From Balanoglossus misakiensis (Eukaryota > Animalia > Hemichordata): DNA of 64,000 nucleotides. Positions 13,709 to 58,002 of the stretch are shown here, in pieces. Both the position numbers and the translations under genes were made by a program. The stretch is taken from contig CM082579.2 of assembly GCA_040954595.2 (NCBI GenBank), forward strand, positions 4,143,227 through 4,207,226. Reading direction: 5' to 3'. The notes beneath the pieces were generated by a model, which saw only the letters and a program-made list of their open reading frames with translations, was not told where the DNA came from and did no database searches. Numbering within the stretch: position 1 is the stretch's first letter; each line of letters begins with the position of its first letter.

Positions 13709-15835
13709 TTAATGCTTGTTGTCATTACACAGACAGTGCATATACTTGGACAGGGTGGCCTTGACGGACGACCAGTCATAATCGTTGTAGATAACGCAGT
13801 TCTGGTGATTCCGATCCCCCTCCAGGTAGTTCAAAAGTGGGAAAATCACCCGGAAGACGAAAAACTTCCCACGCAGGTGAGGGTTCTCCACAAGTATTTC
13901 GTGCAACGTCAACGCAATGGGACACAGTGCCACACTGACGGCGATGTCCATTGTGTAATGAAAGAAGGAGGCAAATAAACTGATGATTCCGGTGAGAGAG
14001 GCGATCCATATTAGTGGGTGGAAAATCCCAAACAGATTGCGAGAATCTGGAAAAAGAAGAGAGAACAGAGATACATGTGGTTATAGTAGCAGAGTGATTT
14101 TAAGTATTCAAGCAATCAAATCTGATTTCCATAGATGGTTAAAAGGGCATTTCTTAAAGCCTTCAATGATTTTCTCTTGGCCCCCCAGTGAAAATTTGTG
14201 ATTGGCTAATTCCCAACTTTACATGACAAAAGTGGATGAATTTGCAAAGGTACTTCATGTATATACCATTGACCAATGTAAATGTTACAATGTAGAATTG
14301 AGAATAGAGTTTTAAAGTCATCATGCAAAATTTTGAATGAGTAAATATTGTATATACTTACATCTTGTGATGTAGTAAGCTAAGAAGATGTATGTAATGG
14401 TGTGACCACTGTACATAAAATCACCGCAAGTGACCACGGGCGTGGCAGTCTCTGGCTTTGGGGTGGCACCCAGGGTAAGTATAATTGCCATAGTTTCCCT
14501 CAATCTTGCAGAAAATGAACCATCTGTCTGTAGAATGAATTGTTGGCAAGAAGTTAGCAGTAGTTGAATATGCATGCATGGGAATATTTCTATGAAATCA
14601 TACTGTTATCATAAATTTGTTACATTTGAATCTAGGAATTATGGTCATGATTAGATGCTGTTCTCACTATCTGCAGAAAGTCTTGTATACCATATCCTAT
14701 TCCTACATACTAGTAATGTATGAATGCTTCCTTTTGTTGACACAAAGGGCAACTGTATGGAGCAGGAACAGGACAATTCATTGTTGGGGAGAGGGGGGGG
14801 GGATCAGTGGCCAAGGATGTCTCCGGTATCAAACTGGTCTCTGTTGATGATTACCTGTGTAGCACAGACAAATCTGCTATGTGTCACCGGCACTCCTGTC
14901 CCAAGCATACATAAACACCTCCAGAGGTACAAAGAAGTGACGTTACTGACGTATCTTCGAAAAATCATCTGCCTGTGAAAATGTAATTACAGAGACCCCA
15001 GTCTTATGAAACAAACAGGAATAGAAACAATCAAATAAACACACCACAACACACCACATACATACACACATACATTCGTGCATGCATTGCAATTGCATGT
15101 ACATATTTATAATATATGCACATACGCTTTGCATAATGCTTCTGGCCGGTCAAACATGTAAAGCGCCACCAGCGACGGATTGTTCACACAAGTCGGCGTC
15201 TGCAGCTTGCTTGGCGTACACTACGTCGCGTCGGGTTTCGTTAAAATTATGTTGGCTGGTTCAGTATCTACGCCAAATTTGACAATGACTAACTTGACAA
15301 GAACTAAATTGTACAACCTGTCAACCCCCTCTCAAGGTGTAAGGTTTAGTGGAAGCCTATACAACAAGCATTCAATTTTACTGTGTCAGGATTTTAAAAA
15401 GAACAAAGCCACCGTTGGCTTCACACACATTTCACGGCGAGCAGAATCAGTTTACAAATTGTAACTCAAGGATCAAAATGCAGCGAATTACCTTTGTTTG
15501 TGTAATAACAGCACGACCAAACTTGTGAAGGCAAGAAATGTAAGTGACGCGGCGCAAATCTTCCTCGGAAACACCCGAAAGGAAATCGAATCCAAAATCA
15601 CGTCGGGTAGGGGAGGGTGCTTCAACGGATCCGGTCGCTTGTCATTGACGACAATGGTCGTGTAGGCAGTAGAAAACATGCAAATGACATAGTAAATTAA
15701 GCCGACCAATGTTCTACTTCTTGAGGGCTTTCCATTGTCGCTTCGGAGGACTGTTTCCTCTGAAAAATTCTTCATCGTACCGTTCGGCTTTGCACATTCC
15801 ATCATGATCAATTCCTCGTGTTCCGATGTCGCCAT
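13709..15835 (-). CDS. Sphingomyelin synthase family protein (SMS/SMSr-like, PAP2 superfamily), no SAM domain, 4 coding exons, ~321 aa
   Basis: Exons 15492-15835, 14855-14972, 14362-14527 and 13709-14046 join in compatible phases. SMS family motifs are present: PPLPD (D1), RR...Y..R...TGVP (D2-like), CGDFMYSGHT (D3) and HYTMDI (D4), with multiple hydrophobic helices. A splice acceptor at 15857-15858 just upstream of the ATG implies a non-coding first exon. Confidence 0.9.
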
Positions 15836-17412
15836 TTTACATTTCCTGGGATCTCCCTAAAGATGAAAGTAAATTGAGAATTAGTTAATTTAAAAAAAAA
15901 AATAGGATGGACATTTAAAACAACAATAAGAGTGGGACATTCTATGTGGCAAAATATACGAACTTTGGGAGAAATAATATCTGACATGACAGATGGAACT
16001 GATGCAACGTATATCTGTGAACCTTTATCTAGCGCGTGCAGTTCCAACATTCTAAAGTTAGAAACAGATTCACATTCGCTTGCCGGATCTACAATTTTAC
16101 ACTGTATATGCATACAGGTGGTCGTGTTATGGTAGGCCTAGCCTATATCATATATACTGCCTATAATTAACCATACGTGTAGTCTAAATTACTAGTACGA
16201 GATGTGCATCGATCATAGTCAGAAGTTTGGCCACTACGAAAGCCAACATACTAGTATAAAAATGCCCAAGACATCACAAAGAATTCGGCATAGGCCATGC
16301 ATGAGTCAAGAAGACTCGAATTGTGATCAGCCAATTATTCCAATACGAGCGTATAGTAATGTTAAAATGAGACTAAAATTAGGCCTATGCGGGTACCAAC
16401 ATAACAATATTCAAATGTATTTAAAAACACAATCGCCATCGAAAGCGGTTTTAATTTTTAGAATTTTATATCAATTTAGTGGTGACTTTTGTTGTATTTC
16501 TAACGACACCACTTCTTCGTGTTTCTGCATTTTCACATCGACCTCGAAATAATCAATATAAACGCCGGATGGTGCATTTTGGTACACGACTTAGCCATTA
16601 TGTATCGAGCCCATGGTTTGCTTTTAGGTCTAGTATTTGTAAACTTTGGGGGCAAATTGAGCGTGTCTAACATAATTTGATTAAAACTGTTCTAATTTAT
16701 AAGGTGCTGCAGAGCACAAAGGGTGAAAGTTCAACCGATGATATACTAGTAATCATGGTAATAGATCAGACCTGGTCAGTCGCAGATGGCGTACCCATCA
16801 GGACGGGATGTTTTCCTAGTCACTCGTGCTTATACATTTTTTGTGACATAAATTAATCGACAGTTGATTGTGCGCGACAAGTGGAGTGACGTGATAGTCT
16901 GTAAACCCACCGCCACTGCTATGCGTGCCATTAAATTGACAGCATGCCTTTGGAATCTCGCGTCTCTCCGTAGTCGTGGTATTTTTGTTCATGTGTAAGG
17001 ACTCTCTGTCCATTTTTTATCAATTCAGACAAAAATGTCAATTATATATACATGTACTGCAGTAGTATTCCCAGTTCCACACTGCATTGCCTATTTGGGT
17101 CAGCTGAGCGCAGTAGATGTCCTCAAGGTCACATTTTCAGCGTCAATAAAATTCAAAATTGCGGGCAGGCATTTCACTTGTGTAAAACAATGCGCTTTAT
17201 TTAGAAACCATTTCATACCATGCACTATTTCAAACGTACGACCTTACCAGTGCGCCTAGGAATTAGTACACGGGCAAAATAATCCGTCTGCTTGCCCTTC
17301 AGTTGTTGTGTGTTAACGAACGTAATATCAAATATACACGCCCTTAATATTGCATATTGCTTACATTCCGCTCTATATCAGGTTACTTTTAGAAAAAGAC
17401 GCATGATTAATT

Positions 17413-36944: not shown

Positions 36945-37854
36945 GCTCAAAGGTCACTCACTCTCACTGAAAATAAAGAAGTGCGAAATGTCATTATAGA
37001 TGACGATTTATCAAGCATAAAAGCCTATTTTGATTAAGGTTTTTGCCAACTACATAGCCCTTTTATTGTAATGAATACTTTATAAATAATTAATGACTAA
37101 ATGTGATTTCAGCCATTCATGTTTTCAGACAAAGGCCATTGCATCCATCACTGTAAATTTTGTAGACAAATCAATTTGCACTTTCATTCATATGGTAAAA
37201 TTTGGCTTTTGTTTCAGTGAGACCTTCCCTAATTAACTTCCCAGAGCTATTCTTTACAACACTAGTCCACATATAGCTATTTACTATTTATATAGAAAAT
37301 ATGCTACAGTGTAGCATGGAGATTATAGCCACAGTTCAGTAGTCTGGAATCAAGACCCAGTGTGTTTTAGATGTGAGTCTATCTAAAACATTGGGTCTGA
37401 ATTCCAGTCTGGCAGTTTAGTAGCTCGAGCTTTTGCCTTGGGTTTTGTTTGCCATGTAACACACAAACCAAGCCGAAACCTCGAGCTACTGAACTACAGC
37501 TATGATCATTGATGAGCTTTGTTTCCGCTGGGCCACACGACGTACGACCGACTGTGGATGATGACAAATTCGAACCTTGGATGCAAAACTTATGGAATTT
37601 TCGTCTTGTTGTGGGCGTGCAAATATACGAAAGAAGCTACTACCAAACTTCGAATAATACCAATCAGGGTACATGTACATGTACTTCGATGTATGTAGTC
37701 CACCATTTGAATCACGCCAACTTAATTGCATGCTCATTTCTTGCGGTGAACTGCACAGTCACATGTACGGAAATTGAAGAAATGCACACCATACGTCAAA
37801 ATAAAGCAGGCTGTGGCAAACTGAGTTAAAATATGCTATTGATAAGAAAATTAC

Positions 37855-37974
37855 CTTTTCCAAGTCGGTCACCTTTCCCTTACTCCGGTATAACACAAGG
37901 AATTACTCGGCAAAACCTAAGGCAGCTGACTCAATTAGCCGGGTCACCTGAAAAACGTGGACGCTCCTTACTGG
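37855..37974 (-). promoter_or_regulatory. Calnexin candidate non-coding first exon plus ERSE-like element
   Basis: Minus-strand donor AAG|GTAATT at 37855/37854 could pair with the acceptor at 36967-36968. CCAGT-N9-CCACG lies at 37956-37974 (ERSE consensus CCAAT-N9-CCACG). Confidence 0.55.
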
Positions 37975-39029
37975 CGAACGGTACGCTGAGCATATTTTTA
38001 CCATTGTAAAATGTGCATTCGGAATGCATTGTAAAAACAATGTACTAGTATTTAACCACAAACGTAAATCTAGCTTGTCATAAACATATTGGAAAATTAA
38101 TAATTTAATAGCAATAGTAAGAACATTTACATTCTAAGGGAAGCTTTGCACCAGTGCAGAAAATATCTTGCGAAAGGTAGACGAAAAAGGTTACTAAGGA
38201 TTTAGCAGCGTTATTCATTTGTTGCCCATAATTGAACGTAGGTGGCGCCATCATAATGACTCCGTTCCTGTTCAGACATGGATCAGCCAGTGACTCCAAT
38301 CTCTTCTTCAACTAATCACTTTCCAGCGCGTGAAGGTTAAGGTTATCTGAACATTGACTCCCGTCCGATACAGATCTCACCATAGGTACACAAACGGCTT
38401 CGGATGCCACGGGTACACTTTTAGCACTTCCAAATTAAAGTGCCAGAAATACAGACGCTGAGACGCAAAGTAACCCTGCGTACTGTTTCGTTGACAGACA
38501 AGAGACCAGAATGAAACAAGAATAATATGCTTGGTGTATAATATTAAAACGTGATTTGAAAATCCGGCACACACTTTATCTGTACTATCTGTTTACTCTT
38601 ACGAATCATTAACTCGCCGTCGATTCTAGTTGTGTGAGTCGAGTGTTCACTCAAATCGGCCGCGAATTCTTACGGTTTTTACTGTTATCAACGGATCAAT
38701 TTTTGTGCGATTATAGTTACACGTTTTTTCCCACCTCGGACACATAATTTCAAGTTCACTGCACATATCTGTGGATGCTTGCGTGTGAGCATATCGATTA
38801 CGATCGAACTCCCAAAAACAATTGAATATGATTATTGGCCTATAGGGCCTAGTAGTAGCGTGTGACAAGGCCGCCTTCGGGTCAAACTACAATCAATAAG
38901 TCATGGAACTTGCTGTTAAAATTTGACAGGAGTGCCGATCTTGATGCTAGATCACAACGAATTCCGCGTATTCTAGCTGTCATACCTGTACTAAATTCGC
39001 ATGCGCAAATGGGACAAACCACTCACTAG

Positions 39030-39094
39030 AGAAGCGCGAGGCGAAATCGGAGCAACACTGGAAATTGGTCGTCTGCGGGGCCCGAACCTGAAAG
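39030..39094 (+). other. Candidate non-coding first exon of the transmembrane adaptor-like gene
   Basis: CpG-rich patch ending in the strong donor AAG|GTAAGA at 39094/39095, with a downstream acceptor TTTTTGTATTCCAG ending at 40676. The start position is approximate. Confidence 0.45.
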
Positions 39095-40712
39095 GTAAGA
39101 CTCGTGGTAAGAGGCGTAAGCAATACCCATCACAGAGTTGCTGAGAGTGAGAGTGAGAGTTTGAATAGGAGATTGCAAATAAAGGGGTGGTGACCACAAG
39201 TTAACGCGTTAGGAGGGCGGACACATTTTATGGTAACATGTACTTCATCTTGGGGGCGAGACTCACTACTGACGTGTGTTATCACAATACATGTATTAAC
39301 AAATATGTCAGCAAATTGCAAAACTGTTTGCGTGACATGGCACGAACTTTACAGGCAAATTGACGTAAAACATGCTTGGAGATCTCCACTATCTGATTGT
39401 GCCTTTAGGAAATATCGCATCATCGTCAAACCCGCACGACTTGGCTAGATCGTCCTGGGTACAGTCAGAGTTACTGTAAGATAAACATAACCGCAACTCG
39501 TATGCATTGTATATCCATGGTGGAGATGTTCAAATTGTGGCAATTCTTAACAAATTAAAACGCCAGACACCTGTTGATATAATTAAGGTATAGTGTCCCT
39601 CATGGAATATATCTTCCGAGACTAGCAATCGTTGATCTCTTGCTGCAAAAAAAGGAGACACTTTTCTTATAAAAGTTCGGAAAATCCATTGGTTTATTAC
39701 GTGGATACAAAAAATTGTGTATTTTACTGCTGAACTATTTGGAAATAATCTCAAGTCTTTACTGGAACTCTGGGGGAAGCGAAAGACCCGTGAAATATCA
39801 ATATATTTCTAAGATAAGCTTAACCCTTGTTTCGAAACGATAACATTGGTGCTGCGGAATATCGTTTTCCTGAATATCAAATGTACTTGATTTTTTTGCC
39901 CAAGGGTCTACTTGTCTGAAGTGTATCATTGATCTCGATGCCTTATCTAGATTTTTGACAACCTCTTTTCGTTTCACCGACAGCTATCAAGAGCGACTCG
40001 GAAGCGAAACAAACGATTGAGTTCACATTGATACTGCACTACCCTAAAGTTTTCGTTGAAATGATAAATATGCCATTGCACGTATAAATTGATTTGAAAG
40101 TTGATTTTGTCCTCGCCAATTTTCAAAGCGACTTTTCAAAGCTGACAAAGTAAAGATTCGGAATATTGTTTCTGTGAATAATGAATGTGTCCAGCATGGA
40201 AAATTGTCTAACATTTCAAAGTGCAAAGTTAGGCTTTCGAAATATGTATGCAGTAGTCTACATTACGCACAGACGTAGGGAAGTAAAACGGAACCGTCAT
40301 AACAACATTATCGCTGGTAAAATTGTTGTTATGAAACTTCCACTATTAAGGAAAACACTGCGGGACCGACTGAGCATATATATTCTAATGGACAGGTGTA
40401 CATGCCTCCCTGGTCGGGCGTACAGGATAATCGGCATAATAGATGATTTTCATGTAGGACTGCACACACTTGCTTGTGCTCGAGTTATTCAGGAGTAATA
40501 TACTGAAGAATAACAGAGCTCATATGACATGATACACATAAGAATATAAAGTTGGGCGATTTTCAATTGTACTGTTACTCGAGTACAGCTCGCATTTTTA
40601 TCAACTGTGTCGACACGATTCCAACATACTAAGATGGTTCGATAAACTGATATGCATGTCTTTTTTTGTATTCCAGAAACAAACTCGGACAAAATATTCC
40701 CCGCGCTCATCA

Positions 40713-43700
40713 ATGGCTGAGACCACGGTCATTGCTGTAACCGAGGTTGAGGAGACGCCAACCGAGGACCCGACGCTAGGGTCGTTTGCAAGCGGCAGCA
40801 CCGACATCGTCACCATTGTGATCTGTGTTCTGACGACAGCGTTGGTAGTGTCCTTGATATGGGCTGCGGTTCTCTGGATTTGTTTGAAACGACGACGACG
40901 TCACGGACGCCATGACGACGACGCCGAGATGGCTTCATCCGGACTGAAGGCCGACCATATCAAAAATCTTCACGGCGGGGACGCGGACGTCAGCTTCGAC
41001 GAGCCTGACGACGGGGAGTACAACGACGCGTTCGAGGATGACGACGATTACATAATACCGTCAACGCCGACCGACGTTATTCATCAGAAGCCGATGGAGG
41101 TTGAAAATGAGAAGAAAAAGAAGACGCCATTTCGTTTTAATTTAATGAACCCGCGGAACAGATCGAAACAAAAGCGGAACACTTATGTTGAAAGTGTCCC
41201 GCAAGAAATGGCAGATAACACACGCATCTCAGAAGAGGAAAACTATGACGTCACTGAAGGAATGAGGGAGACCAAAGCGAGTACGGGGCGCGAGAATCAG
41301 CCGCACGACAAAAATCCGTCATGCGACGATGACGACGGAGTCGCTGATGACTACCTGGACATTATTAGCGACGTGGAGGGCGCCGCTTTTGGAAAATCCG
41401 GAATGCAAAAGAGTGCCGATCTCCAGGATGACCAAACACATAACCCTGCCCAGGAGAAAAACGAACGGTTTGGAGTTCTTACTAAAAGTTTGGAGAAAAC
41501 GTGCACGAGTGAGGTCGTGAATATTTCGAGATCTACGAACGAAAGTGTTTCTGACGGAGAGAGCAGAACTGAACCAGTAAAATATTACGACGCCATTTCG
41601 CCCGAAGCAGAATCGTCAAATATGTATAAAAACATCTCTCCTGGGATTGACAACTGTCGGAAAAGTCAAGGCCAAGGGAACGATGTCAGCGAAAGTTCCC
41701 AATCGGTCGACTCTCAGGTATCGAGCGAACTGATGTACGATGATGTCGACAGCGATGGCGCCCACGACTACCTGGACATTATTTCAGATGAAAAGGAGAT
41801 AAAGACCGTAAAGACGGAAAAGGCAACGGGCAGGCAGAGTCACAACGCCGGAGACAAAAGCAGTGAGAACGTCACAGATGATGATGACCGAGCCAAGAAG
41901 TCGAAAATTGGCCCTGGAAGGAAGAAGAGTCCAGTTCGTAAGACGGTCTCCGCGCCCGAAGCTGTGACAGATCATTCTCAGGATAAAATGGAAATTCAAT
42001 GCGATGCAGACGGCGTCGGGAAAGTTACTTCATCTGACGACTCTCACGCATCGAACGACATGACTTATGATGACGTCGATGCCGACGCCGACGACAACTC
42101 GGGCGTCATATCCGGTTCGGGCGAAAGAGGCACAAAGGACGACAGGGCAGATGAAGACCAATCCGAAATACAAAGTTGTGACGACCTTAACTCCACCGAC
42201 GCCCGAAAGAAAAACTCTGCCGGAAAGAAAAAAGAACGCTTTGGGTTTCTTAAAAAGTTAACGAAAACCTCCAGCGGTGAAAAGGACGCTGACCCTCCTG
42301 GGTCTACTTCTAATATCTGCTCGAAAACAGACGAACCACAGAAAGCGACGAGAATTGAACACCAAGTGAACGACGAACAGGGGCCCATATCGAATGACTT
42401 TCGGACATCAGACGAAATGACCTACGATGACGTGGATGGTGACGTCGTAGATTATCCGGATGCTGTTTCCGATTCTGACACTAGGGGCGGAAAGTTGGGA
42501 AATGTCCCCACACAAGAAGCAGGAGAAAAAGATGTTGGTGGTGTTCATCATAATGGCCAAAACAGGAGCTCCGTCGAAGAGAAAAAACAACGTTTTGGGT
42601 TTTTGAAAAGACTGAACAAGGCAATGTCTTCGAAGTCTAGTGATGGAGAAAATCGTTCAGCTTCAAGTAGCGATGGAAAAGACACTTGGACAAAAACACC
42701 TTCCGCAAGCGACGTCACCAACTCTCCCGCTGAGGGCGATTCTGATGCGATTTACGATGACGTACTCGGCGAAGTTACTGAATCTGAAAAATGCAGCGAC
42801 CAGCAATCACATGGAAGTAATCCTGGAAAGGGAAAAACACCATTTCGCTTCGTCTTTTTGAAAAGGCTTAAAAAGAGTCGACGCGGTACCGCTGATGGCG
42901 CCACACGGATTGAGATGACGAGGCCGAGGGATCCTCTTGGAGCATCTCTTCAGGATGACTACAACATTTACGACGATGTAGATCTTGATATCGAAGACCT
43001 GGTTGATAACATTGCGTTTCCCGGTCCCCAACGTGCTACGTTGCCTAGAGACAACCTCGGCTACTATAACGATGAAGAATTCGACGAGGTGTTCCCGCCA
43101 GACGACGAAGACAAGGAAAGGAAGATGGTTTCCTCCTCTCAGGGGAGCGGTGGAGTCGAAGACTCCGACAAGAAGAAACATAGGATACAGAGTCGACCCT
43201 TGCCGGAGTACGGCAATGTCGACGTTTCCGTTGAGAGTCCCCGCCACTACTCCGACTTGGTTGCCGACGATTTTCACCCGCGCAGTCCGGCTCAGACCGA
43301 GTACACGCATCTACAGATGTCATCCGCGGGCGGACAAGGCCAAGAAATGTACGAAGAACCGGTTGTGTACGTAAACGACCATCGGAGATCCGGGTTTGGC
43401 GAGTCGGCTACGGAACCAGGTGAGGCAGACGGTGAAGATATTTACGATTACGCCGACGAGGACATCGTAGAGTCCATTCATCTGAATTTAACCGGGGACA
43501 AAAGAGAGTCTACCGGTGAAGGTGACGAGTACGTCAACACGCCACCTGCGATGAGGTCGGAGGATAAACCTCCCCTTCCGACCCCGAGCGTCTCTGAGGA
43601 AAGCCGTGAGAAAGCGAGAGAACTAGATGTACCCACGACCGGGAATAAACACCTCCGGGGAAGCGTTGCAGAAATGGTCATTGGCATCGAAAAGACACGT

Positions 43701-43982
43701 GACAAGGACGTTATTGTAAAACCCGCCATCCCAACACGACCCCCGCACCACAACCACACAGGACGAGAGGCAGCTGGAGCGGCGCAACGGCTCAGCACCG
43801 ACATGACCCGGACGAAGTTGCCACCGGTTATCGACGTGACGAATCTGAACAGGGAACCGGCACAGAAACCGCAGAGGACTTCGCGGCCCAGCAGCAGGAG
43901 GATCGTCATCTTAGACATGGAGCAAGAACATCACGTGACGGTTCCCACCGACTTCTACACAACCGGAGAGTTTCGGGTGTAG
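40713..43982 (+). CDS. Uncharacterised type III single-pass transmembrane protein, transmembrane-adaptor-like (~1089 aa, single coding exon)
   Basis: 3.3-kb uninterrupted ORF. The first ATG after the acceptor at 40676 is in good context (TCAATGG). About 30-aa Thr/Glu-rich ectodomain with no signal peptide, one TM helix (IVTIVICVLTTALVVSLIWAAVLWICL), a KRRRR stop-transfer and a ~1030-aa acidic low-complexity tail with ~27 tyrosines and Pro-rich motifs. No folded domain recognised. Confidence 0.85.
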   Translation: MAETTVIAVTEVEETPTEDPTLGSFASGSTDIVTIVICVLTTALVVSLIWAAVLWICLKRRRRHGRHDDDAEMASSGLKADHIKNLHGGDADVSFDEPDDGEYNDAFEDDDDYIIPSTPTDVIHQKPMEVENEKKKKTPFRFNLMNPRNRSKQKRNTYVESVPQEMADNTRISEEENYDVTEGMRETKASTGRENQPHDKNPSCDDDDGVADDYLDIISDVEGAAFGKSGMQKSADLQDDQTHNPAQEKNERFGVLTKSLEKTCTSEVVNISRSTNESVSDGESRTEPVKYYDAISPEAESSNMYKNISPGIDNCRKSQGQGNDVSESSQSVDSQVSSELMYDDVDSDGAHDYLDIISDEKEIKTVKTEKATGRQSHNAGDKSSENVTDDDDRAKKSKIGPGRKKSPVRKTVSAPEAVTDHSQDKMEIQCDADGVGKVTSSDDSHASNDMTYDDVDADADDNSGVISGSGERGTKDDRADEDQSEIQSCDDLNSTDARKKNSAGKKKERFGFLKKLTKTSSGEKDADPPGSTSNICSKTDEPQKATRIEHQVNDEQGPISNDFRTSDEMTYDDVDGDVVDYPDAVSDSDTRGGKLGNVPTQEAGEKDVGGVHHNGQNRSSVEEKKQRFGFLKRLNKAMSSKSSDGENRSASSSDGKDTWTKTPSASDVTNSPAEGDSDAIYDDVLGEVTESEKCSDQQSHGSNPGKGKTPFRFVFLKRLKKSRRGTADGATRIEMTRPRDPLGASLQDDYNIYDDVDLDIEDLVDNIAFPGPQRATLPRDNLGYYNDEEFDEVFPPDDEDKERKMVSSSQGSGGVEDSDKKKHRIQSRPLPEYGNVDVSVESPRHYSDLVADDFHPRSPAQTEYTHLQMSSAGGQGQEMYEEPVVYVNDHRRSGFGESATEPGEADGEDIYDYADEDIVESIHLNLTGDKRESTGEGDEYVNTPPAMRSEDKPPLPTPSVSEESREKARELDVPTTGNKHLRGSVAEMVIGIEKTRDKDVIVKPAIPTRPPHHNHTGREAAGAAQRLSTDMTRTKLPPVIDVTNLNREPAQKPQRTSRPSSRRIVILDMEQEHHVTVPTDFYTTGEFRV

Positions 43983-46900
43983 GCGTCAGTTGAAAATCGA
44001 TGCTTAGTAACCGGGCTTGCAACCGACTCCATTTCAGGTTGTCGAAACGTTATAGATTGACTTTTCAACGAATATTGAAGTCTGAATATACTTTAGGGCC
44101 CGAAGTTGAACAAGAAACTGTATCTGTTGAGAACAAAATATCGAAAAAATGTCGAAAGTTTAACCGCCAATTTCCTTTATAATTTTCGGGAAAGCTACTA
44201 AAGATATAACAGTAATATTATGTTAACAAGAAAAATGTTAGGAGCAATACCTGCAATTTTATCCGGTGGGCGATTACGAAGGAACGAACCCAAGTTCTCC
44301 GAAGTTTATGTCAGGATGATAGAGGAGGAACTTTTACAGATTGCGCCGTTTGGTCAAGACAGGACACCAGACTACTTTTATCGGATATTCACTCATAAAT
44401 ACACGGATTAAAAAAGCTTTACTTTTTAATTATATTTTGAGATTTGCTCGGGAGGGTGTTGAAACGCCTAAATACCGATAATGGGTTCATTGACGTCATG
44501 TGGTTTTCTGTCATACGACCTTTGATGAAAAGTCTGTGGCATTTTCCTAGACTCAATCTTCAAGTTGCCACTGAGGGCGCACGGAGAAAGTAATTCAGGT
44601 TGGTCCGCAAGGAAAGAAATCTTTCAGAAAACACCATGGCTGTGCTCTTCCCACGAAGCAAATGGACACAACATTAGAACTCAGACGATTTAGTAGTAAA
44701 ATGTCATTTTATTGCTGAACAACTCATACAATTGATTAAAATGCCAACATTATGGCAAGATGAAACAAACGCTTCTTTTTTTGTCTTCTTCAAATAAAAG
44801 GAACCTAAAATACAAACAAAACCTTAAATTGTATCTAATCTGATCAATCACTGAGGTGATCAGATCAGTGAACCACTAGACATGCCTGACAACTAATAAA
44901 CTAAACTAAAGAAAATGATAACATATATATATATTTGATAAATATAATATTTCATATAATTTTTTTGTAGCACCAAGAGAATTTAAGAAATTATTGCATT
45001 TGGCAACATCTTTGGTGTTCCTTTGAATTAGGTTAATTCATTTCAAGCACGGAAAATTCGCATGCAATTTTAATGAAATTATTAAACATTGCCCAAGGCT
45101 TAACTTTTATCCAAACACAGAAAATCTGCATGCAACACTAACGATAATATTCTGGAAATTGCCTGAGGCCATACCTTGTACCTTTAACATTATTTTACCC
45201 TATTCCCAAAACAACTCCCATGATGCTCTGCAGCAATGAAAACGAAGTACTGGTGTATAACTGTCAAATATGACAATGTCAGTTTCGGTGATTTTTGAAA
45301 ATATATGATACAAAAATGATCAAGTCTTCAGAAAAATTCTGTGAAAATGTCAGCTTTAACACCTGCCAGATATTTAACAATGGCGAAAAAGAAAATTCTG
45401 AAAAATCAAATTTTCGTCCCGTAAAATTCAATATTTGATGGGAGACATCCAACACAGTAACAGAATACATCATTTTCAAAATAATGTACAATGATTAAGT
45501 ATTCTAACTCGAATCCGCATCAATAAAAAAACAATGATCATTCATTTATATCAGACACAATATTGCTAAATCTGAACACTCATATATCTGCAGATCAAGA
45601 ATAAAATCCAAATGATGAGTCCCTATATACCGGTAATGTTACAAGGAAAATACAACAGATTTGGGGAAAAAAAAGATTTGGAAAAATCTTCATAATACTG
45701 CAATGATGTAGATATTGTTGTACCAATTGCCCTTGACACTTTGAACTTGTCTTGTCATTTGATAAAAATATCATTTTTCGACATTAAACCCAACAGACTT
45801 CTTATTAGAAATTATTACAATTTTAAGCACCATTCCAAAAAAGTTTACATTTTAAAGCGGGTGGTCATATCAAGCAGAGTGAAATCCAGGGCTACAAAGT
45901 CTCCCTTTAATCTAACAAAATGAATAGTTAATTATATTAGTCTCTCCATGTAATCTAAATAAAAACAGAAAAGTACAATATTTTCTGTACAGAAGTAAAA
46001 TTCCACTCAAGAAAAGATATACCCAGAATCATTTGACAAAAATTTCCTTTATAGGTGGGCATATTTTCTAATACTATAAAAAAACTGACACTGAAAAATT
46101 ATGCTTTTTATGACGAAAAAACCCAGAGTCAACCCTTCTTAAGTCATGCCTTGCTTAGTCACAGACTGTGTTATAATCCCCCATTCTATTAAAAAAATTG
46201 CTGTGACAATTTGAAACAAAAACAGGATGAGATGATCTTGAGTTTAATGGATACCATTTTGTAATGCACAAATTCTCCAGTACTGATTTGTCAACGAGAA
46301 GGCACACAGTTTAACGTCTGTTGGTTCTTGAAAATACCATACACAAAAGGCCCACCCACTGTGGTGATATTGATTATTGCTAAGGAAGTCAAGGGTCAGG
46401 GGGTGAGGCTCCTTGACTCAAAATCAGAGACTGGCTCCCTGTCACTGAACATGTTTACAAAAGTCGTGAAAACATTCTGCAGTGCAGCAGTAGGTCTCTT
46501 TCGTGACCCCCGAGTGACCTTGTACATCCTGGTACTCTGCTGGTTTGACATCATGCATCGTTCAACATTACATGCAACATTTTGTAACTGACAAAATTTA
46601 AATTATCTGGTCCAGTATGGCTGACTGTTCCAGAGTTGAAACCCAAAATGGTAAATTTACACCAACAGGATGCAGAGGTCACATAGAGGTCATGAAAGTA
46701 TCCTATTTCTTAGTAGTGTCCTTAATACCTGAACTGCAAACTTTGTTTCAGCAAGCTAACTTGTAAGGCACTTACTGAAAACCACCAATATCAGCAGCAG
46801 CATTCAGACTGTTGTTTTTCAACTTAACGGATAATTTATTTGGTTTTTGAGTATCTAATAAATCAAATCACTGATATTTGTACACACTACTTGACATATT

Positions 46901-47259
46901 TATTGCTTTCAGGATCCCTATTGATCAAACATATTGTATTTTATAATATTCAATCAAACACAAATGAATACTGGTGCATTGCTTTTTGTCAAGTTCCAAA
47001 CTCTTGACATACACCGCTGAAACAAATGGATAATCTTTGTTTGAGAAGGACGTTACAGAAATCATTTGATGTTTGAGGACACTGCCAATACAAGTACATT
47101 CATGGCAAAGTAACAACTGTAGCATACAAATGACTGGCAGACCATATTGCAGTCAAACCTTGGCATCGTACACTTGGGAGAGTCCTTCCACTGTGTAGAG
47201 GTGATACACAGAATTAAGGACCCAGTTTTGAAAAAAAACCAGCACAAATGAAATTCTTT

Positions 47260-48829
47260 TTACTTGATTTTTCGGATCTTATTTCTCTTCAAGGGGATAC
47301 ACAGCAGTGGAATGAAGAGGAGAATTCCCAGAAGAACTTGACTGATGACAAAGGCGAGGAGACGATCATAGCCCCACGTGCTTGGCATCTGTTTCATTCC
47401 GTACAGGAGCAGAAACCCGATGATGACAGCTACGGACGCATAAAGGTATCCCGTTGCTGCCTGGAGACGAAAAGAAGACTTTATTAAACTCAATTGCAGG
47501 GGTAGAGGAGTTGTTTTTTTGTCGTATTATTTCCCAAAAATGCTTTGATACTAGTGAATGTAGGTTGGCACTGACTCAGACTGAGAATGAACAAACAGTA
47601 TAAGACTGTCTCTGATTGGCCTGTTATTTTTTTGCAGTCTGCAAATGGGTTTGAAGCAAGTACACGAATCGAGTCACCTCTTACGTCTAGCATTTCAGAG
47701 GCACACTGTATGTACATCGTCCTCCGTGATGAAGAGTGATGACATATGACTTGTTTCTTGTTGGTCTACTCACCTGTTTAACCATGGTCCACTTTCTCTG
47801 TTTGTTGATGGCTACATCTGTTGGCCAAATGGACATTGCATAGAAGAGTGGGGGGACAACGAATACAGCCATCACAAGCAAGGTGTAGAACACTTCACAG
47901 TGAAAGAAATCCACCAACTGATATTTTTTCCCAGCACGCCATTCTTCCAATGTGCCTGAAATGTGTACAACGAGTTTGTGTATTATGAAAATAGTGTCAG
48001 ATGACACTTTTGGTGAGAATTAGTACTTGTTTTTGTTTACGAAGCAATACACAAATCCACTCAACTTTCTTGACCAAATACTGCCCTCTATATTTATACT
48101 CTTATCATGTCACCAGTTAGACTGGAAAATCAAAGATCAACAAGCTGTTTTGGTAGAAATTTAGAACAGATTATATCTTATCTATCAAATTTACAAGAGC
48201 CATTGAAATGTTTCAAAGGTACATGTCCACAAGTCATAGTTCAATAACTGTACAGTACACTTCAGTGGTCCTTAATTAAAACTTTACTGGTACTTTACTG
48301 TGGTCACTGTGACATTATTCTTTTGGGGATGGAGTATACTTCGTGGCATAATTATCATGCTAATTAACAAATAAAAGTACTTGACAGCTGGTCCAGACAC
48401 TATTGGATGACTGAGCGAAGGATATAATGTCTTACCGGCATAAAGAAATCTGTCATATCCCAAAGAAAGAATGGCAGACATACAAGTGTAGGACATCGTC
48501 CAGACGGCGTGAGCGGTCGCTTCTTTGCCATTTTGAACTAGCTTCCAGACGACAACGAAGCCCAGTACTCCCTGTGAAACACAGGTGCATGCAAATAAGC
48601 AGACCCATATGGGATGGAGGCTTCGATCTAAGAAAAACATCGTTTCCCAGCCCGTGTAACCCCAGAGTAGATACACCCCCGACGGGGCGAACACCAGGCT
48701 GAGATACAGTACACAGTATACGAAATATTTGTTGACAACCATCGAGTGTTCTCGCTTTAGGGCTTCGGATGCACAGGCGGCAAAGCAAGCCCCCATGGCA
48801 AAAGACCAAAAGACGTCAACTTGAATCAT
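47260..48829 (-). CDS. Uncharacterised multi-pass membrane protein (3 exons, ~258 aa)
   Basis: Exons 48436-48829, 47774-47955 and 47260-47460 have GT-AG ends and compatible phases (1, 0). About 7 hydrophobic segments. Distinctive motifs MIQVDVFWSF, FAPSGVYLLW and GWETMF; basic C-terminus KRNKIRKIK. Confidence 0.82.
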
Positions 48830-49209
48830 TGTCGCTGGCTGCTGGCTCTTGACACACAGGTAGAAATGGTGCTCACACCAGCAGCGGCCGATGTCCCAGA
48901 TGAACGCTACGCTGGCAACCGGAAGTCACTGCTTTACGGAAATGGCACCGCTGCAAAACTCCTCCTCCCCAACTGAATGTCTGGAAGTACTTGCGCGTAA
49001 AGTTTTCAGTCACCTTAATGAGATTGTTGAGTACTGCCACTAGAGATGTCAGCCACTCCAGTTGAGGTTAGGCAACTTGTTGTGTAACTGAACTAGAAGT
49101 TTTCACCGGCTTTCATTTCAATGTGACCTTTGACATTATGCCGTCTGCACAAAAATTGTAGGATTTGAGCATGCGTGATGATGATACCGGAAGTTTAACT
49201 TCGTTTGAA
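48830..49209. promoter_or_regulatory. Bidirectional promoter between the membrane-protein gene and NXT1
   Basis: Divergent start codons are only ~380 bp apart. There are two ETS/GABP motifs CCGGAAGT (48919-48926 and 49187-49194) and a YY1-like AAATGGCGG over the NXT1 ATG. Confidence 0.6.
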
Positions 49210-50110
49210 ATGGCGGCTGCTGTAAGTATCACGATACTGTTTTCTTTCTCTCTTCCTTCCTGCCAGTTTGTTTGCTCATTTATTGGTATAGTGGAAATTT
49301 GACTGTAAACGTGCATCGTCTAGGATAGAATGTGGAGTGTAGTCTGAGCATCAAGTGTGTAATCATAGACTATACTCATTACTGTCTATCATGAGCATGG
49401 AGGTACTAAGAGATGGTGTAAATAACAAAAATATGTCGATTTTCAGGAGTTCAAAGCCAAAGCTGACGTAGCGTGTTTATCTGGGGAGGAGTTTTATAAG
49501 CTGTACTATGAAACATTTGATAAGAGAAGAAATGTAAGTATATTATCCTACACACTCAGTTGTATTCAGATGTATGCAATATGGGATTTGTGTAACTTTT
49601 TTCATGTGTCAATTCTGGTCATATGTCACACTATTTTAATACTTGGATGCAATGTATCTACACATTTCAGATATTAGCAAAGCTTTACTTGGACACAGCA
49701 ACACTGGTATGGAATGGCAATGCATGCAAGGGTGTTGATCAAGTGGCCAAGTTCTTTGAACAATTACCAGCGAGTCATTTCAGAGTGGAATCATTAGACT
49801 GTCAGCCCATAATAGGTAAGTACCACATCTGATCAAATGGGAGCATAGTGTCCTTGATGCTATTTTTATTTTCACTGCAATCATTTAACTTTTTCTATCA
49901 ATACTTTTTACTTAATCTATGAAATTATTTTTTTCTTGTTTCACAACAGAAGAAGCAACAAACAACCAGACTTCAATCTTGGTGACAATAAATGGAACTG
50001 TTAAATTTGATGGACACGATCACATCAAAGCCTTTCATCAGAGCTTTATCCTGACAGCCCAGGGAAATAATTGGAAGATAGCAAGCGACTGTTTTCGATT
50101 TAGGGAGTAG
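49210..50110 (+). CDS. NXT1: NTF2-related export protein (p15), 4 exons, ~134 aa
   Basis: Exons 49210-49221, 49447-49533, 49671-49815 and 49950-50110 give MAAA|EFKAKADVACLSGEEFYKLYYETFDKRRN|ILAKLYLDTATLVWNGN...LPASHF...LDCQPI|...VTINGTVKF...FHQSFILTAQGNNWKIASDCFRFRE*. These are typical NXT motifs. Confidence 0.95.
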
Positions 50111-50542
50111 GGAAACTGTGAATACTGAAGCAAATGTCAAATTCTCAGGGAAATATCAAGAAAAGGTTGTTGGCTTGTATCCCTGCATATCGATGTTTGA
50201 CAAGTTCATAATGGTTGGATAGAAACAGCGTCCACAGGGAGAAGATTTTTTTCAGCTTTTCTTCCCTAGTACTGTGCAGCCATAGTTGGCACGAATATCC
50301 AGTGAGGATTTGAATATTTGATGAATGTGGCCTTGCCAAAGCAGCACCTTCTATGGGATAAAGATGGCACTAAAATGGCCAGATGAGAGTGTGCATATGT
50401 AATTGTGTTGTAACCACAATGAGACCAGGTACAACGTATAGATGTTTTTGTGTATGTCAATTTTCATCAAAATGGGAGGGTAACAACACCTTTTATATAA
50501 ACTGACCCAAACCATCAAAATAATGGAAAAGCTAGTTTATTA

Positions 50543-51748
50543 CTTTTGTCATCCACAACATACATGTACACCATACATGTACCACAACATACACCAAAAT
50601 TGCGTACCAGTAAAATAAAAAAAAATGCACAGTAGATGTGTATTAATATTTTGCTATTATGCTTCATATACAATCATTGCATGTTGCAAATTGCTACCTT
50701 GTAGAATTCTCTATATGTTGACAAAATGTTATCATGGCGGTACATGTAGTTAATATCCAATTTGTTCGACAAATTGGAAAAAAAATATTCACAAACTGCT
50801 GACAAAATTAAATGCAATGATTACACCATGCAGCTGCAGAAGAAATTCAAATTAATTAATCAGACAATTGCCAATACTGCATGAGATATTGGGGGGAGAC
50901 TGGAATAATGAATTTGTACAATAATATTGCATTTGATTGAAATTGCGTATCATAAATGTACAAACATATAAATTTTCATTCGTCCTTTTCAATTATTTGA
51001 TTTTATTTAAAATTGCTGCTGTTAATTCTCAGACAGGTGTGCGGGGACACAGAGGCTACTTCTATAGCTTGCCGGCTTTTTGTTGGGCGACAAACTTTGA
51101 GAGTTCTCCGTAAACAGCTCCTCTGTGGCACTCATTCTTCTCGTCATCTTTTGTCATCCACAACATACATGTACACCATACATGTACCACAACATACACC
51201 AAAATTGCGTACCAGTAAAATAAAAAAAAATGCACAGTAGATGTGTATTAATATTTTGCTATTATGCTTCATATACAATCATTGCATGTTGCAAATTGCT
51301 ACCTTGTAGAATTCTCTATATGTTGACAAAATGTTATCATGGCGGTACATGTAGTTAATATCCAATTTGTTCGACAAATTGGAAAAAAAATATTCACAAA
51401 CTGCTGACAAAATTAAATGCAATGATTACACCATGCAGCTGCAGAAGAAATTCAAATTAATTAATCAGACAATTGCCAATACTGCATGAGATATTGGGGG
51501 GAGACTGGAATAATGAATTTGTACAATAATATTGCATTTGATTGAAATTGCGTATCATAAATGTACAAACATATAAATTTTCATTCGTCCTTTTCAATTA
51601 TTTGATTTTATTTAAAATTGCTGCTGTTAATTCTCAGACAGGTGTGCGGGGACACAGAGGCTACTTCTATAGCTTGCCGGCTTTTTGTTGGGCGACAAAC
51701 TTTGAGAGTTCTCCGTAAACAGCTCCTCTGTGGCACTCATTCTTCTCG
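50543..51748. repeat. Direct tandem duplication, two ~601-bp copies (50543-51143 and 51148-51748)
   Basis: Copies are offset by 605 bp and appear identical by eye, with a 4-nt junction TCAT at 51144-51147. The duplicated ORF prefix MLLLILRQVCGDTEA at 51013 and 51618 confirms the period. Confidence 0.95.
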
Positions 51749-56640: not shown

Positions 56641-58002
56641 ATGGGACAGGCCAATACAATCTCAAGGATGACAAGCAATGCACTACTGACTCATTGTCGC
56701 GAGGTTCTCAACGGTTATCCTCCGTTGCTCACCAGGAAAATCCGCCGCATCAAACACTTTGGCAATCTCGCTGCAGCTGCTGCTGAAGGCCCAAAGGTTC
56801 GGATACTGCAATGGAATGTACTGGCTGATGGTGAGTGAGAAGGAAAAAGACCCATTCACAAATACATTGTGCTGTTACTGATTCTGAAAAAATGGGAATT
56901 TTATAGTTTGATTTGGTTTTTAGTATTTCATTTAATTTAGGATAAAACTTTGACAAAAGTAAAGAGTGAAACTGATGGCTGCCAATAACAGAGATGCTGT
57001 CCCATGGGTTGGAAGTGTTTTGGGTGGTAAATGTCGTGGGTTGGGGTAACTGTCATGATACCTAGACAATTTGTGCTTGTCAATCAGTACATGATAAACT
57101 GACATGCAAATGACTTTGTGTTTGTTCCATCAGCACTCTGTCAAAACAAAGACAACTTCATCAAGGCTCCACCGGATGGACTGTTGTGGGAAAACAGAAA
57201 ATTCCGTTCTCTGGAAGAAATCCTGACCTATGACCCGGACATCATTTGTCTGCAGGAGGTCGACCACTACCATGACTTTTACAACCCGATGCTGCAGAAT
57301 GTCGGTTACCAGGGTATCTTCAAACCGAAGCCGGACTCGCCCTGCGTCTACTGCGTCGATCACAACGGGCCCGACGGCTGCGCGCTGTTCTACAAATCGG
57401 ACAAGTTCGACGTCGTCGACGGCATCACCCCGAACCTGAAGGTCAGCATGCCCGGCGAGAGAACCTGGATGACGAACCAAGTGGCAATCATTTACACCTT
57501 GCAGGCGAAGGCGCCGAACTACAGCGGGGAGCAGTTCGTGGTGGGCGTCACCCACCTCAAGGCCAAGCCGGGCTGGGAAGATCTGAGGCACACGCAAGGC
57601 GAGAAGATTCTCCAGCACCTCAAGGAGCAGGCCAAAAACAAAGCCGTCGTCTTCTGCGGGGACTTCAACGCCGAAGAATCAGAGAAGGTGTACGAGGCAT
57701 TTACAAAAAGCAGCTTGAAACTGGACAGCGCTTACAAAGCCCTAAGCGACAGCGGATCAGAGGAGCCTCCGTACACCACGTGGAAAATCCGTCCCAGCGG
57801 AGAAGTCAGGCACACCATCGATTACATGTGGTACTCGGCTGAGAAGCTCAGTGTGCACGCTGTCTTAGAATTGCCCACTGAAGCTCAGCTCGGTGAGGCG
57901 AGAGCGCCCTCACTGGTGACTTCTTCTGATCATTTTGCCATGGTTTGTGATTTTAAATTTCAACCTGGCTACCATGGCGATAAAGGCTTCAGCTCTCTGT
58001 GA
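56641..58002 (+). CDS. NOCT: Nocturnin (EEP-family NADP(H) phosphatase, CCR4-like), 2 coding exons, ~352 aa
   Basis: Exons 56641-56830 and 57134-58002 give RILQWNVLAD|ALCQNKDNF...PDIICLQEVDHY...PKPDSPC...NGPDGCALFY...NQVAI...THLKA...CGDFNA...YTTWKIR...HTIDY...SDH. These are diagnostic nocturnin motifs. Confidence 0.96.

Follow-up and report, generated by a model that had tools for sequence, protein, structure and literature searches.

What kind of protein is specified by the long open reading frame at positions 40713-43982 (+) of a 64,000-nucleotide stretch of Balanoglossus misakiensis contig CM082579.2 (the window), and is it, as an initial annotation made from the letters alone had proposed, a giant LAT/PAG-like transmembrane adaptor? 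The frame encodes 1,089 amino acids ending in EFRV, and its product is read here as a membrane protein devoid of catalytic or folded cytoplasmic domains, with conserved and partly duplicated tyrosine motifs, which probably acts as a transmembrane adaptor. This reading is well supported by the predicted architecture and by motif conservation, the two parts of the initial proposal that stand; homology to LAT or PAG could not be detected. Comparison with an ortholog indicates that the gene is real, conserved and previously mis-named, and that its tyrosine motifs are under selection.

The sole hydrophobic stretch of the protein spans approximately residues 32-56 and is followed by C57-L-KRRRR. It is preceded by 31 acidic residues without a hydrophobic signal, and all 27 tyrosines are found in the tail of about 1,030 residues on the cytoplasmic side, whose net charge is -82. 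The charges flanking the helix are -7/+6 in B. misakiensis and -3/+5 in the ortholog from Ptychodera flava, and by the positive-inside rule this asymmetry places the tail in the cytoplasm, predicting an N-out/C-in, type III single-pass topology in both species. The AlphaFold model contains a single helix (28-67), with predicted local distance difference test (pLDDT) values below 50 in 1,039 of the 1,089 residues and no long stretch above 50; the input alignment held only 2 sequences, which makes low pLDDT alone weak evidence of disorder. By the charge-hydropathy index, 98% of the 51-residue windows of the tail score as unfolded. No Pfam family was found for the full-length protein or for its ortholog, and no solved structure matched the protein below E 0.08. 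The architecture initially described (no signal peptide, an ectodomain of about 30 residues, one helix followed by Cys and KRRRR, some 1,030 disordered acidic residues with about 27 tyrosines, and a C-terminal EFRV) was thus borne out in every element. Matches to Pfam SKG6 (E 0.022) and DUF6338 (E 0.063), which fell below their own cut-offs and cover the helix alone, were rejected, and Protein Data Bank matches of E 0.08 or worse (class I helices of the major histocompatibility complex and two others) were set aside.

Transmembrane adaptors are defined in PMC4861716 and PMC3342071 by a short ectodomain, one helix and a non-catalytic tail with many tyrosine motifs. The four features of this class that can be tested on a sequence were all found: a short extracellular part (31 residues; 13 in P. 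flava), a single helix with a predicted cytoplasmic C-terminus (hydropathy, model and charge asymmetry in both species), a long tail without any enzymatic or folded domain (no Pfam family, no structure match, low-confidence models), and multiple SH2-type tyrosine motifs under selection, the last judged on one ortholog.

That ortholog was the one match (E 1e-26) returned by phmmer against 1.84 billion representative sequences, a search that gave no vertebrate match. It is XP_070553920.1 (P0001) of P. flava, a predicted model of 975 residues automatically named 'nucleolar protein dao-5-like', which starts 13 residues before the helix, is collinear to the last residue and also ends in F-x-V. Identity is 64% over 53 columns of the helix region versus 34% in the tail. 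Within the tail, 11 of 19 aligned tyrosines are identical, compared with 253 of 740 positions overall, and tyrosine ranks first of the 20 residues. Because aligners favour tyrosine pairs, realignments were made against shuffled sequences: 60 residue shuffles gave a mean of 2.9 and a maximum of 7 tyrosine matches, and 60 shuffles of 20-residue blocks, which leave motifs intact, a mean of 5.0 and a maximum of 8, against 11 in the real pair. Two MAFFT modes yielded 11 of 19 identical tyrosines and a third mode 13; in the third-mode alignment, positions +1 to +3 after conserved tyrosines are identical in 25 of 38 cases, versus 188 of 576 far from them. The expectation that tyrosine motifs would be conserved while spacers drift holds in this one ortholog (11 of 19 tyrosines versus 34% overall). 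The helix itself (40806-40880) is much better conserved than the remaining protein, and its small residues 43, 47 and 51 are shared by both species, which suggests a helix-packing face.

Other searches added no further relative. A profile of the helix region retrieved only the P. flava protein among 217 candidates, with no longer isoform up to 2,000 residues, and the exact 1,089-residue sequence was absent from the protein collection searched. Among 7,989 candidates, a word-based search using the whole protein retrieved no homologue; it also missed the P. flava ortholog and is uninformative for that reason. A search of plasmid DNA, which is not relevant here, gave no match.

Motif counts were compared with those in 2,000 shuffled versions of the tail. 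YDDV occurs five times versus 0.03 expected (0 of 2,000 shuffles reach 5), YLDI twice versus 0.005, Yxx[VIL] at 12 of the 27 tyrosines versus 3.6 (p 0.0005) and YxN five times versus 1.2 (p 0.005), and there is one YIIP and one YEEP. These p-values overstate the independent evidence because four YDDV and both YLDI sit in duplicated units. The fraction of acidic residues before tyrosine exceeds background in B. misakiensis (0.34 versus 0.21) and in P. flava (0.41 versus 0.20). The initial inventory was correct for YDDV, YLDI, YIIP and YEEP but overlooked YYN at 784, with which YxN motifs number five. Its claim of proline-rich SH3 motifs was overstated: KPPLP is kept exactly in P. flava, alone among the proline motifs (RPLP aligns there to PPLP), but RPLP and KLPP themselves lack a PxxP core and PxxP is not enriched over tail shuffles (6 versus 3.1, p 0.08), and SH3-motif enrichment was dropped on that value. 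An RVxF and an RxxTxP motif of P. flava were also dropped, since the B. misakiensis protein does not fit their pattern.

The SH2 class predicted for each motif follows published ligand rules. YIIP is the PLC-gamma site of PDGFR-beta (Y1021 peptide; PMC3514216 Table 1), YDDVD the HPK1 site for Nck1 and SLP-76-like SH2 domains (PMC3514216) and YVNT the form of the FRS2 Grb2 sites (PMC3514216); YEEP fits the Nck1 consensus Y[DE][EL][PV] given in the same source (PMC3514216), and classes were also assigned from the ligand table of PMC9783222. For ADAP, PMC2908683 reports the recovery of SLP-76, Nck, PLC-gamma and Gads in pull-downs with pYDDV, with no direct Gads binding in its two-hybrid test. 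By these rules, the conserved distal cluster at residues 828-957 is a predicted docking region for Grb2/Gads, Nck and Src-family proteins.

Overlooked in the initial annotation were a tandem repeat, a basic-aromatic motif alternating with YDDV, and a species-specific expansion of modules. The array has a repeat length of about 115 residues, with YDDV decayed in the first unit (U0) and the basic motif lost in the second. At the DNA level all six pairs among units U0-U3 are related (z 5.8-19.9; 0 of 100 codon shuffles reach the score), and the fifth unit, U4, is related only to U3, with no DNA-level significance against three of the four other units. Four YDDV sites are spaced by 110, 119 and 110 residues and the fifth follows at 72; the five copies vary at third codon positions without any residue change (synonymous only). 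Tandem Repeats Finder did not detect the repeat of about 115 residues, reporting only short units of 6-16 bases. A segment rich in Lys/Arg and containing two or three Phe, the basic-aromatic motif, separates the YDDV sites; it occurs four times versus 0.2 expected (0 of 1,000 shuffles reach 4) under a criterion chosen post hoc, after the motif had been seen. It stands about 30-57 residues after three of the YDDV sites, and the helical hydrophobic moment exceeds the 92nd percentile of the tail in three of five cores, the other two falling short. P. flava shows a single clear copy between YDEV and YDDV, apparently the ancestral form of the module. It has three YVNT...KPPLP units versus one in B. 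misakiensis, and also two YKNT units, so that Nck-type/YxN sites number 6/5 in B. misakiensis and 3/9 in P. flava. Judged from these counts, the two species have amplified different docking modules, Nck-type here and Grb2-type in P. flava.

As a transmembrane adaptor, the protein would be phosphorylated on its tail by the Src- or Syk-type kinase of a separate receptor, and the phosphorylated tail would gather SH2 proteins of the Nck/SLP-76, Grb2/Gads and PLC-gamma types, which in turn would drive actin assembly and Ras/calcium signalling. Cys57 would be palmitoylated, according to established rules. More tentatively, the basic-aromatic segments may tack the acidic tail to the inner leaflet about every 115 residues, keeping each YDDV site looped close to membrane-bound kinases, the conserved face of the helix could pack against a partner or a second copy, and multivalent binding might produce clusters. 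Polybasic membrane binding that is switched by phosphorylation is described for MARCKS and receptor tails (PMC7752083). Phagocytes or other immune cells are our lead guess for the cell type, offered with less than even confidence. Also in favour of the adaptor reading, SLP-76, Gads and Itk are reported in amphioxus and an SLP-76 in sea urchin (PMC5431462).

Several results weigh against the adaptor reading, or against a close parallel with LAT. In the main alignment 16 of the 27 tyrosines are not conserved (8 face gaps and 8 other residues). The position of YLDI is not kept in the ortholog, and in the data of PMC3514216 the PLC-gamma SH2 domain did not bind a YLDL peptide; the SH2 assignment of YLDI is doubtful. 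The protein has neither YxxM, by motif scan, nor an ITAM (YxxL/I-x(6-8)-YxxL/I), the latter being absent from the P. flava protein as well; the helix also lacks the charged residue of ITAM signalling subunits (DAP12, FcR-gamma, CD3), a class to which the protein does not belong. The raft-type CxxC of LAT, NTAL and PAG was not found, there being a single Cys57 here and C-x-C in P. flava; LAX is likewise without CxxC but counts as an adaptor all the same (PMC4861716/PMC3342071). The YDDV sites lie 72-119 residues apart, versus about 20 for the sites of LAT, nephrin and A36 (PMC9333988). Taken alone, the basic-aromatic motif is not significant in P. flava (1 versus 0.1, p 0.097). Finally, the searches found no ortholog in Glandiceps, Saccoglossus or echinoderms, so that two sequences are known and conservation amounts to one comparison; the family may be young or fast-evolving.

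Among other explanations, a standing organiser of junctions or cortex in a non-immune epithelium, such as the podocytes of the glomerulus or ciliated cells, is rather improbable but survives best. Hemichordates have podocytes, and the protein would there work like the nephrin tail with a PDZ partner at its C-terminus; the terminal F-x-V is conserved and we take it to be a candidate class II PDZ ligand. Nephrin, Tir and A36 reach Nck, N-WASP and Arp2/3 by way of multiple YDxV sites (PMC9333988), and the nearest Pfam-named look-alike in the ESM Atlas is poxvirus A36 (0.85 and 0.86; below 0.9 and a lead only). Against such a role, there is no adhesion ectodomain, and the membrane-proximal PLC-gamma-type site together with 5-9 YxN motifs fits a signalling relay better. 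For both proteins the nearest Atlas entries were A36, UL135, SCIMP, LIME1/PAG, opalin and unnamed arthropod clusters, all below 0.9, a result in keeping with the architecture but inside the range given by shuffled proteins, as are the SCIMP, LIME1 and PAG cluster scores (0.79-0.82); the recognition value of the query was low (1040), and structure matches had template modelling scores below 0.3.

There is a slim chance that the frame is the end of an ordinary receptor, with a ligand-binding ectodomain in unseen upstream exons. The predicted acceptor, a pyrimidine tract followed by CAG, ends at 40676, 36 bases 5' of the ATG and in frame with the open reading frame, no stop intervenes before the ATG, and the start context is moderate (T at -3, G at +4). 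The upstream region (37800-40712) was scanned with simple home-made splice-site scores (donor cut-off 2.5), which weak sites could escape. Donors passing the cut-off were 37981, 39095 and 39107, and in the required phase a stop is reached 14, 1 and 5 codons upstream, with no ATG in any of the three frames. On the minus strand a calnexin-type gene is arranged head to head with the scaffold gene, leaving only about 2.7 kb between its first-exon donor and the latter, with 75, 106 and 58 amino acids as the longest open frames there; within this space the scan found no upstream coding exon that would fit an ectodomain. The predicted P. flava model likewise starts 13 residues before its helix, and none of the 217 candidates is a longer isoform. 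Upstream exons adding an ectodomain, which the initial annotation had named as grounds for giving up its proposal, were thus looked for and none fits. In the likeliest gene model, coding sequence is probably confined to a single exon, which a 1.6-kb intron separates from a non-coding first exon with its end at 39094; 'single-exon', as first described, applies to the coding region but probably not to the gene. Transcription starting before about 39000 would include two out-of-frame upstream ATGs, the frame of one overlapping the main start; under that condition a possible 45-codon upstream frame, formed by 39001-39094 joined to 40677-40718, has a stop that overlaps the main start codon.

Slightly more remote is a role in trafficking or as a cargo adaptor, in which the tyrosine and acidic motifs would be sorting signals. 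The sorting-signal consensus for adaptor-protein complexes is YxxPhi, with which the 12 Yxx[VIL] tyrosines agree, and acidic clusters are abundant in the tail; against this role, the conserved sites include YxN, YEEP, YDYA and YVNT, none of them YxxPhi, and one or two sorting signals are normally enough. It is very unlikely that the topology is reversed (type II), with the acidic tail extracellular or luminal and the tyrosines in acidic context serving as sulfation sites. Acidic residues before tyrosine also suit sulfation, and the tail contains 10 N-x-S/T sequons (14 in P. flava), but charge asymmetry predicts N-out in both species, Asn at +2 persists outside sequons (YGNV/YVNV, YVND/YQNE, YVNTP), and SH2 classes are followed by residues +1 to +3. 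That the frame is unexpressed or non-functional is hardly credible, given 1,089 intact codons, an ortholog that is also intact though its indels differ, and motifs in which only synonymous change is seen.

The coordinates of the features on which the transmembrane adaptor reading draws are collected in Table 1. Near the C-terminus there is also a conserved, helix-like non-tyrosine motif, SVA-x-x-V-x-GIE (43662-43694), and two short conserved hydrophobic strands precede the terminal F-x-V within 43896-43979.

Table 1. Coordinates (window positions) of the scaffold gene and of features predicted or conserved within it.
Feature	Position	Strand	Basis or remark
Predicted splice donor of non-coding first exon (exon end 39094); second donor begins at 39107	39092-39100	+	Two strongest of three donors
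Predicted splice acceptor (pyrimidine tract and CAG) of single coding exon	40657-40676	+	Best of three acceptors passing cut-off; no other ATG before start
Coding sequence, 1,089 amino acids, predicted type III single-pass membrane protein	40713-43982	+	Frame and P. flava ortholog P0001
Extracellular stub, residues 1-31, Thr/Glu-rich, net -7	40713-40805	+	Poorly conserved (13 residues in P. flava)
Transmembrane helix, residues 32-56; nine-residue invariant core; one face with small residues 43, 47 and 51; charged residues absent	40806-40880	+	Hydropathy, ortholog, model
Juxtamembrane Cys57 (predicted palmitoylation site) and KRRRR stop-transfer cluster	40881-40901	+	Invariant in ortholog; net +6 in ten residues after Cys57
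Predicted PLC-gamma-type SH2 site: acidic segment holding Y103 and Y113 (YIIP here, YVTP in P. flava)	40995-41066	+	PDGFR-beta Y1021 YIIP ligand, PMC3514216 Table 1
First basic-aromatic motif (poly-Lys then FRFNL)	41109-41150	+	Kept in P. flava
Degenerate tandem array, residues 192-740: five units of about 110-140 residues (last shorter) of YDDV, acidic spacer and basic-aromatic motif	41286-42932	+	DNA-level unit comparison
YDDV at Y342, predicted Nck/SLP-76-family SH2 site	41736-41747	+	YDDV ligands in PMC2908683, PMC3514216
Further YDDV sites	42066-42077, 42423-42434, 42753-42764, 42969-42980	+	
Core of repeated basic-aromatic motif, RFGFL, predicted inner-leaflet binder	42237-42251	+	Others 42591-42605, 42840-42854; 41466-41480 degenerate
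Conserved non-tyrosine motif AFPGP...T(L/M)PR	43014-43049	+	P. flava alignment
Conserved distal tyrosine cluster, residues 828-957: PLPEYxNV, YxxL, YEEP, YxN, IYDYADE, EYVNT, KPPLP	43194-43583	+	Seven of eight Tyr align to Tyr in P. flava
Conserved C-terminal segment ending F-x-V	43896-43979	+	EFRV versus SFNV

The calnexin-type gene has its start codon at 36944 and its first-exon donor at 37854 (-), and two of the four pieces scanned matched the Calreticulin family (E 1e-18 and 1e-7). Directly downstream of the scaffold gene, 47200-48925 (-) holds a gene for a multi-pass membrane protein with a 212-residue open frame without Pfam match, and a small multi-exon gene follows at 49210-50110 (+), which, judged by eye, presumably encodes a protein resembling the NTF2-related export protein NXT1. 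Between the latter and an SGS-domain gene (SGT1-like), also downstream of the scaffold gene, a 601-base direct duplication of 100% identity (50542-51142 and 51147-51747) reflects either an error of assembly or a duplication event of very recent date. A nocturnin catalytic domain is encoded in one 299-codon open frame at 57103-58002 (+); its exon (57130-57963) is most similar to P. flava (86% identity), followed by Glandiceps talaboti (79%) and Saccoglossus (65%), with the remaining 117 listed matches at 49-54%. Sphingomyelin-synthase-like exons at 13709-15856 (-) gave a weak PAP2_C match (E 1.3e-5) just below cut-off. The CpG observed/expected ratio is about 1.0-1.4 over 37500-44500 (gene and promoter) versus 0.4-0.5 across most of the calnexin body, a level which suggests an unmethylated gene body; unmethylated gene bodies are typical of regulated rather than housekeeping genes. 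Similar ratios occur elsewhere in the window, for example at 15-25 kb, and CpG content was therefore not used as evidence.

What would such a protein mean? Qu et al. (2017) reported SLP-76, Gads and Itk in amphioxus and no LAT-like molecule (PMC5431462), and proposed that an unknown membrane-bound protein might do the job of LAT (PMC5431462). With low confidence, the acorn-worm protein might be this missing invertebrate counterpart, an anchor that nucleates an ancient SLP-76/Gads/PLC-gamma complex in deuterostome invertebrates, combines on one chain the docking jobs of LAT (PLC-gamma, Grb2/Gads) and ADAP (YDDV for SLP-76/Nck), has its tail of 1,000 residues looped by repeated helices tacked to the membrane, and differs between species in Nck-to-Grb2 valency through tandem duplication of different modules. 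No description of such a protein was found in literature searches on adaptors of invertebrates and hemichordates, which did not cover most subscription journals. Unnamed arthropod clusters of 579, 947 and 868 residues rank at or near the top of the Atlas by features (0.85-0.86) and may represent other long invertebrate tyrosine-motif membrane scaffolds; similar layouts elsewhere would lower the novelty. Adaptors of this type are nearly invisible to homology search and are mis-named automatically, as 'nucleolar protein dao-5-like' illustrates, and the gene provides a concrete deuterostome candidate and a motif template for finding others. The ortholog pair is moreover a natural experiment in multivalency, with Nck-type modules apparently amplified in one species and Grb2-type in the other. 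Should the immune link fail, an undescribed phosphotyrosine scaffold of narrow taxonomic range would still be left; the family is known from two species.

Known systems resemble the protein in different parts. Like the polybasic segments of MARCKS, its basic-aromatic segments combine Lys/Arg and Phe in an acidic disordered chain (PMC7752083), but they are shorter, recur 4-5 times, alternate with SH2 sites and belong to a transmembrane protein; their membrane binding is predicted. FRS2 (YVNT), p130Cas (YDY-x) and DOK1 (YDEP/YEEP-type) carry sites of the same form (PMC3514216 Table 1). Unlike them, the acorn-worm protein is anchored by a transmembrane helix. Those docking proteins rely for their recruitment on folded PTB, SH3 or PH domains or on a lipid anchor.

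The nephrin tail, vaccinia A36 and Tir of enteropathogenic Escherichia coli share with the acorn-worm protein a disordered membrane-anchored tail with Nck-type sites before YVN Grb2-type sites (PMC9333988), an order that is reported to work best in A36 (PMC9333988). No homology to these proteins was detected, and the acorn-worm protein differs in being encoded by an animal chromosomal gene, in its far more numerous and more widely spaced sites, and in a YKN that precedes the Nck-type sites in both species. The ectodomain of nephrin is large. The exact YDDV, also repeated, is found in ADAP (FYB) and HPK1, where it binds SLP-76 and Nck (PMC2908683), and a lipid-binding domain follows the second YDDV of ADAP by 38 residues (PMC2908683), compared with about 30-57 residues from three YDDV sites to the basic-aromatic motif here. 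Those proteins have folded domains (hSH3, kinase), none of which was found in the acorn-worm protein; it lacks the helically extended SH3 Pfam domain of the ADAP/FYB family, to which it does not belong, and has a membrane helix. ADAP and HPK1 have none.

In layout the protein resembles the vertebrate adaptors LAT, NTAL/LAT2, LAX, PAG, LIME, GAPT and SCIMP, which have a short ectodomain (given as 16 residues in PAG, versus 31 here), one helix, a juxtamembrane Cys and a multi-tyrosine tail (PMC4861716, PMC3342071). No homology to LAT, NTAL, PAG, LIME or SCIMP was detected by Pfam scans at E up to 10 of the whole protein, three tail pieces, an N-terminal piece and the P. flava ortholog, scans in which HMMER filters drop most weak matches. 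The acorn-worm protein departs from these adaptors in sequence, in length (1,089 residues versus about 400 in LAX), in tyrosines (27 versus 10 reported for PAG or LAX), and in its YDDV/basic-aromatic array and conserved C-terminal F-x-V. As in LAT, the predicted PLC-gamma site lies near the membrane and the YVN sites are distal.

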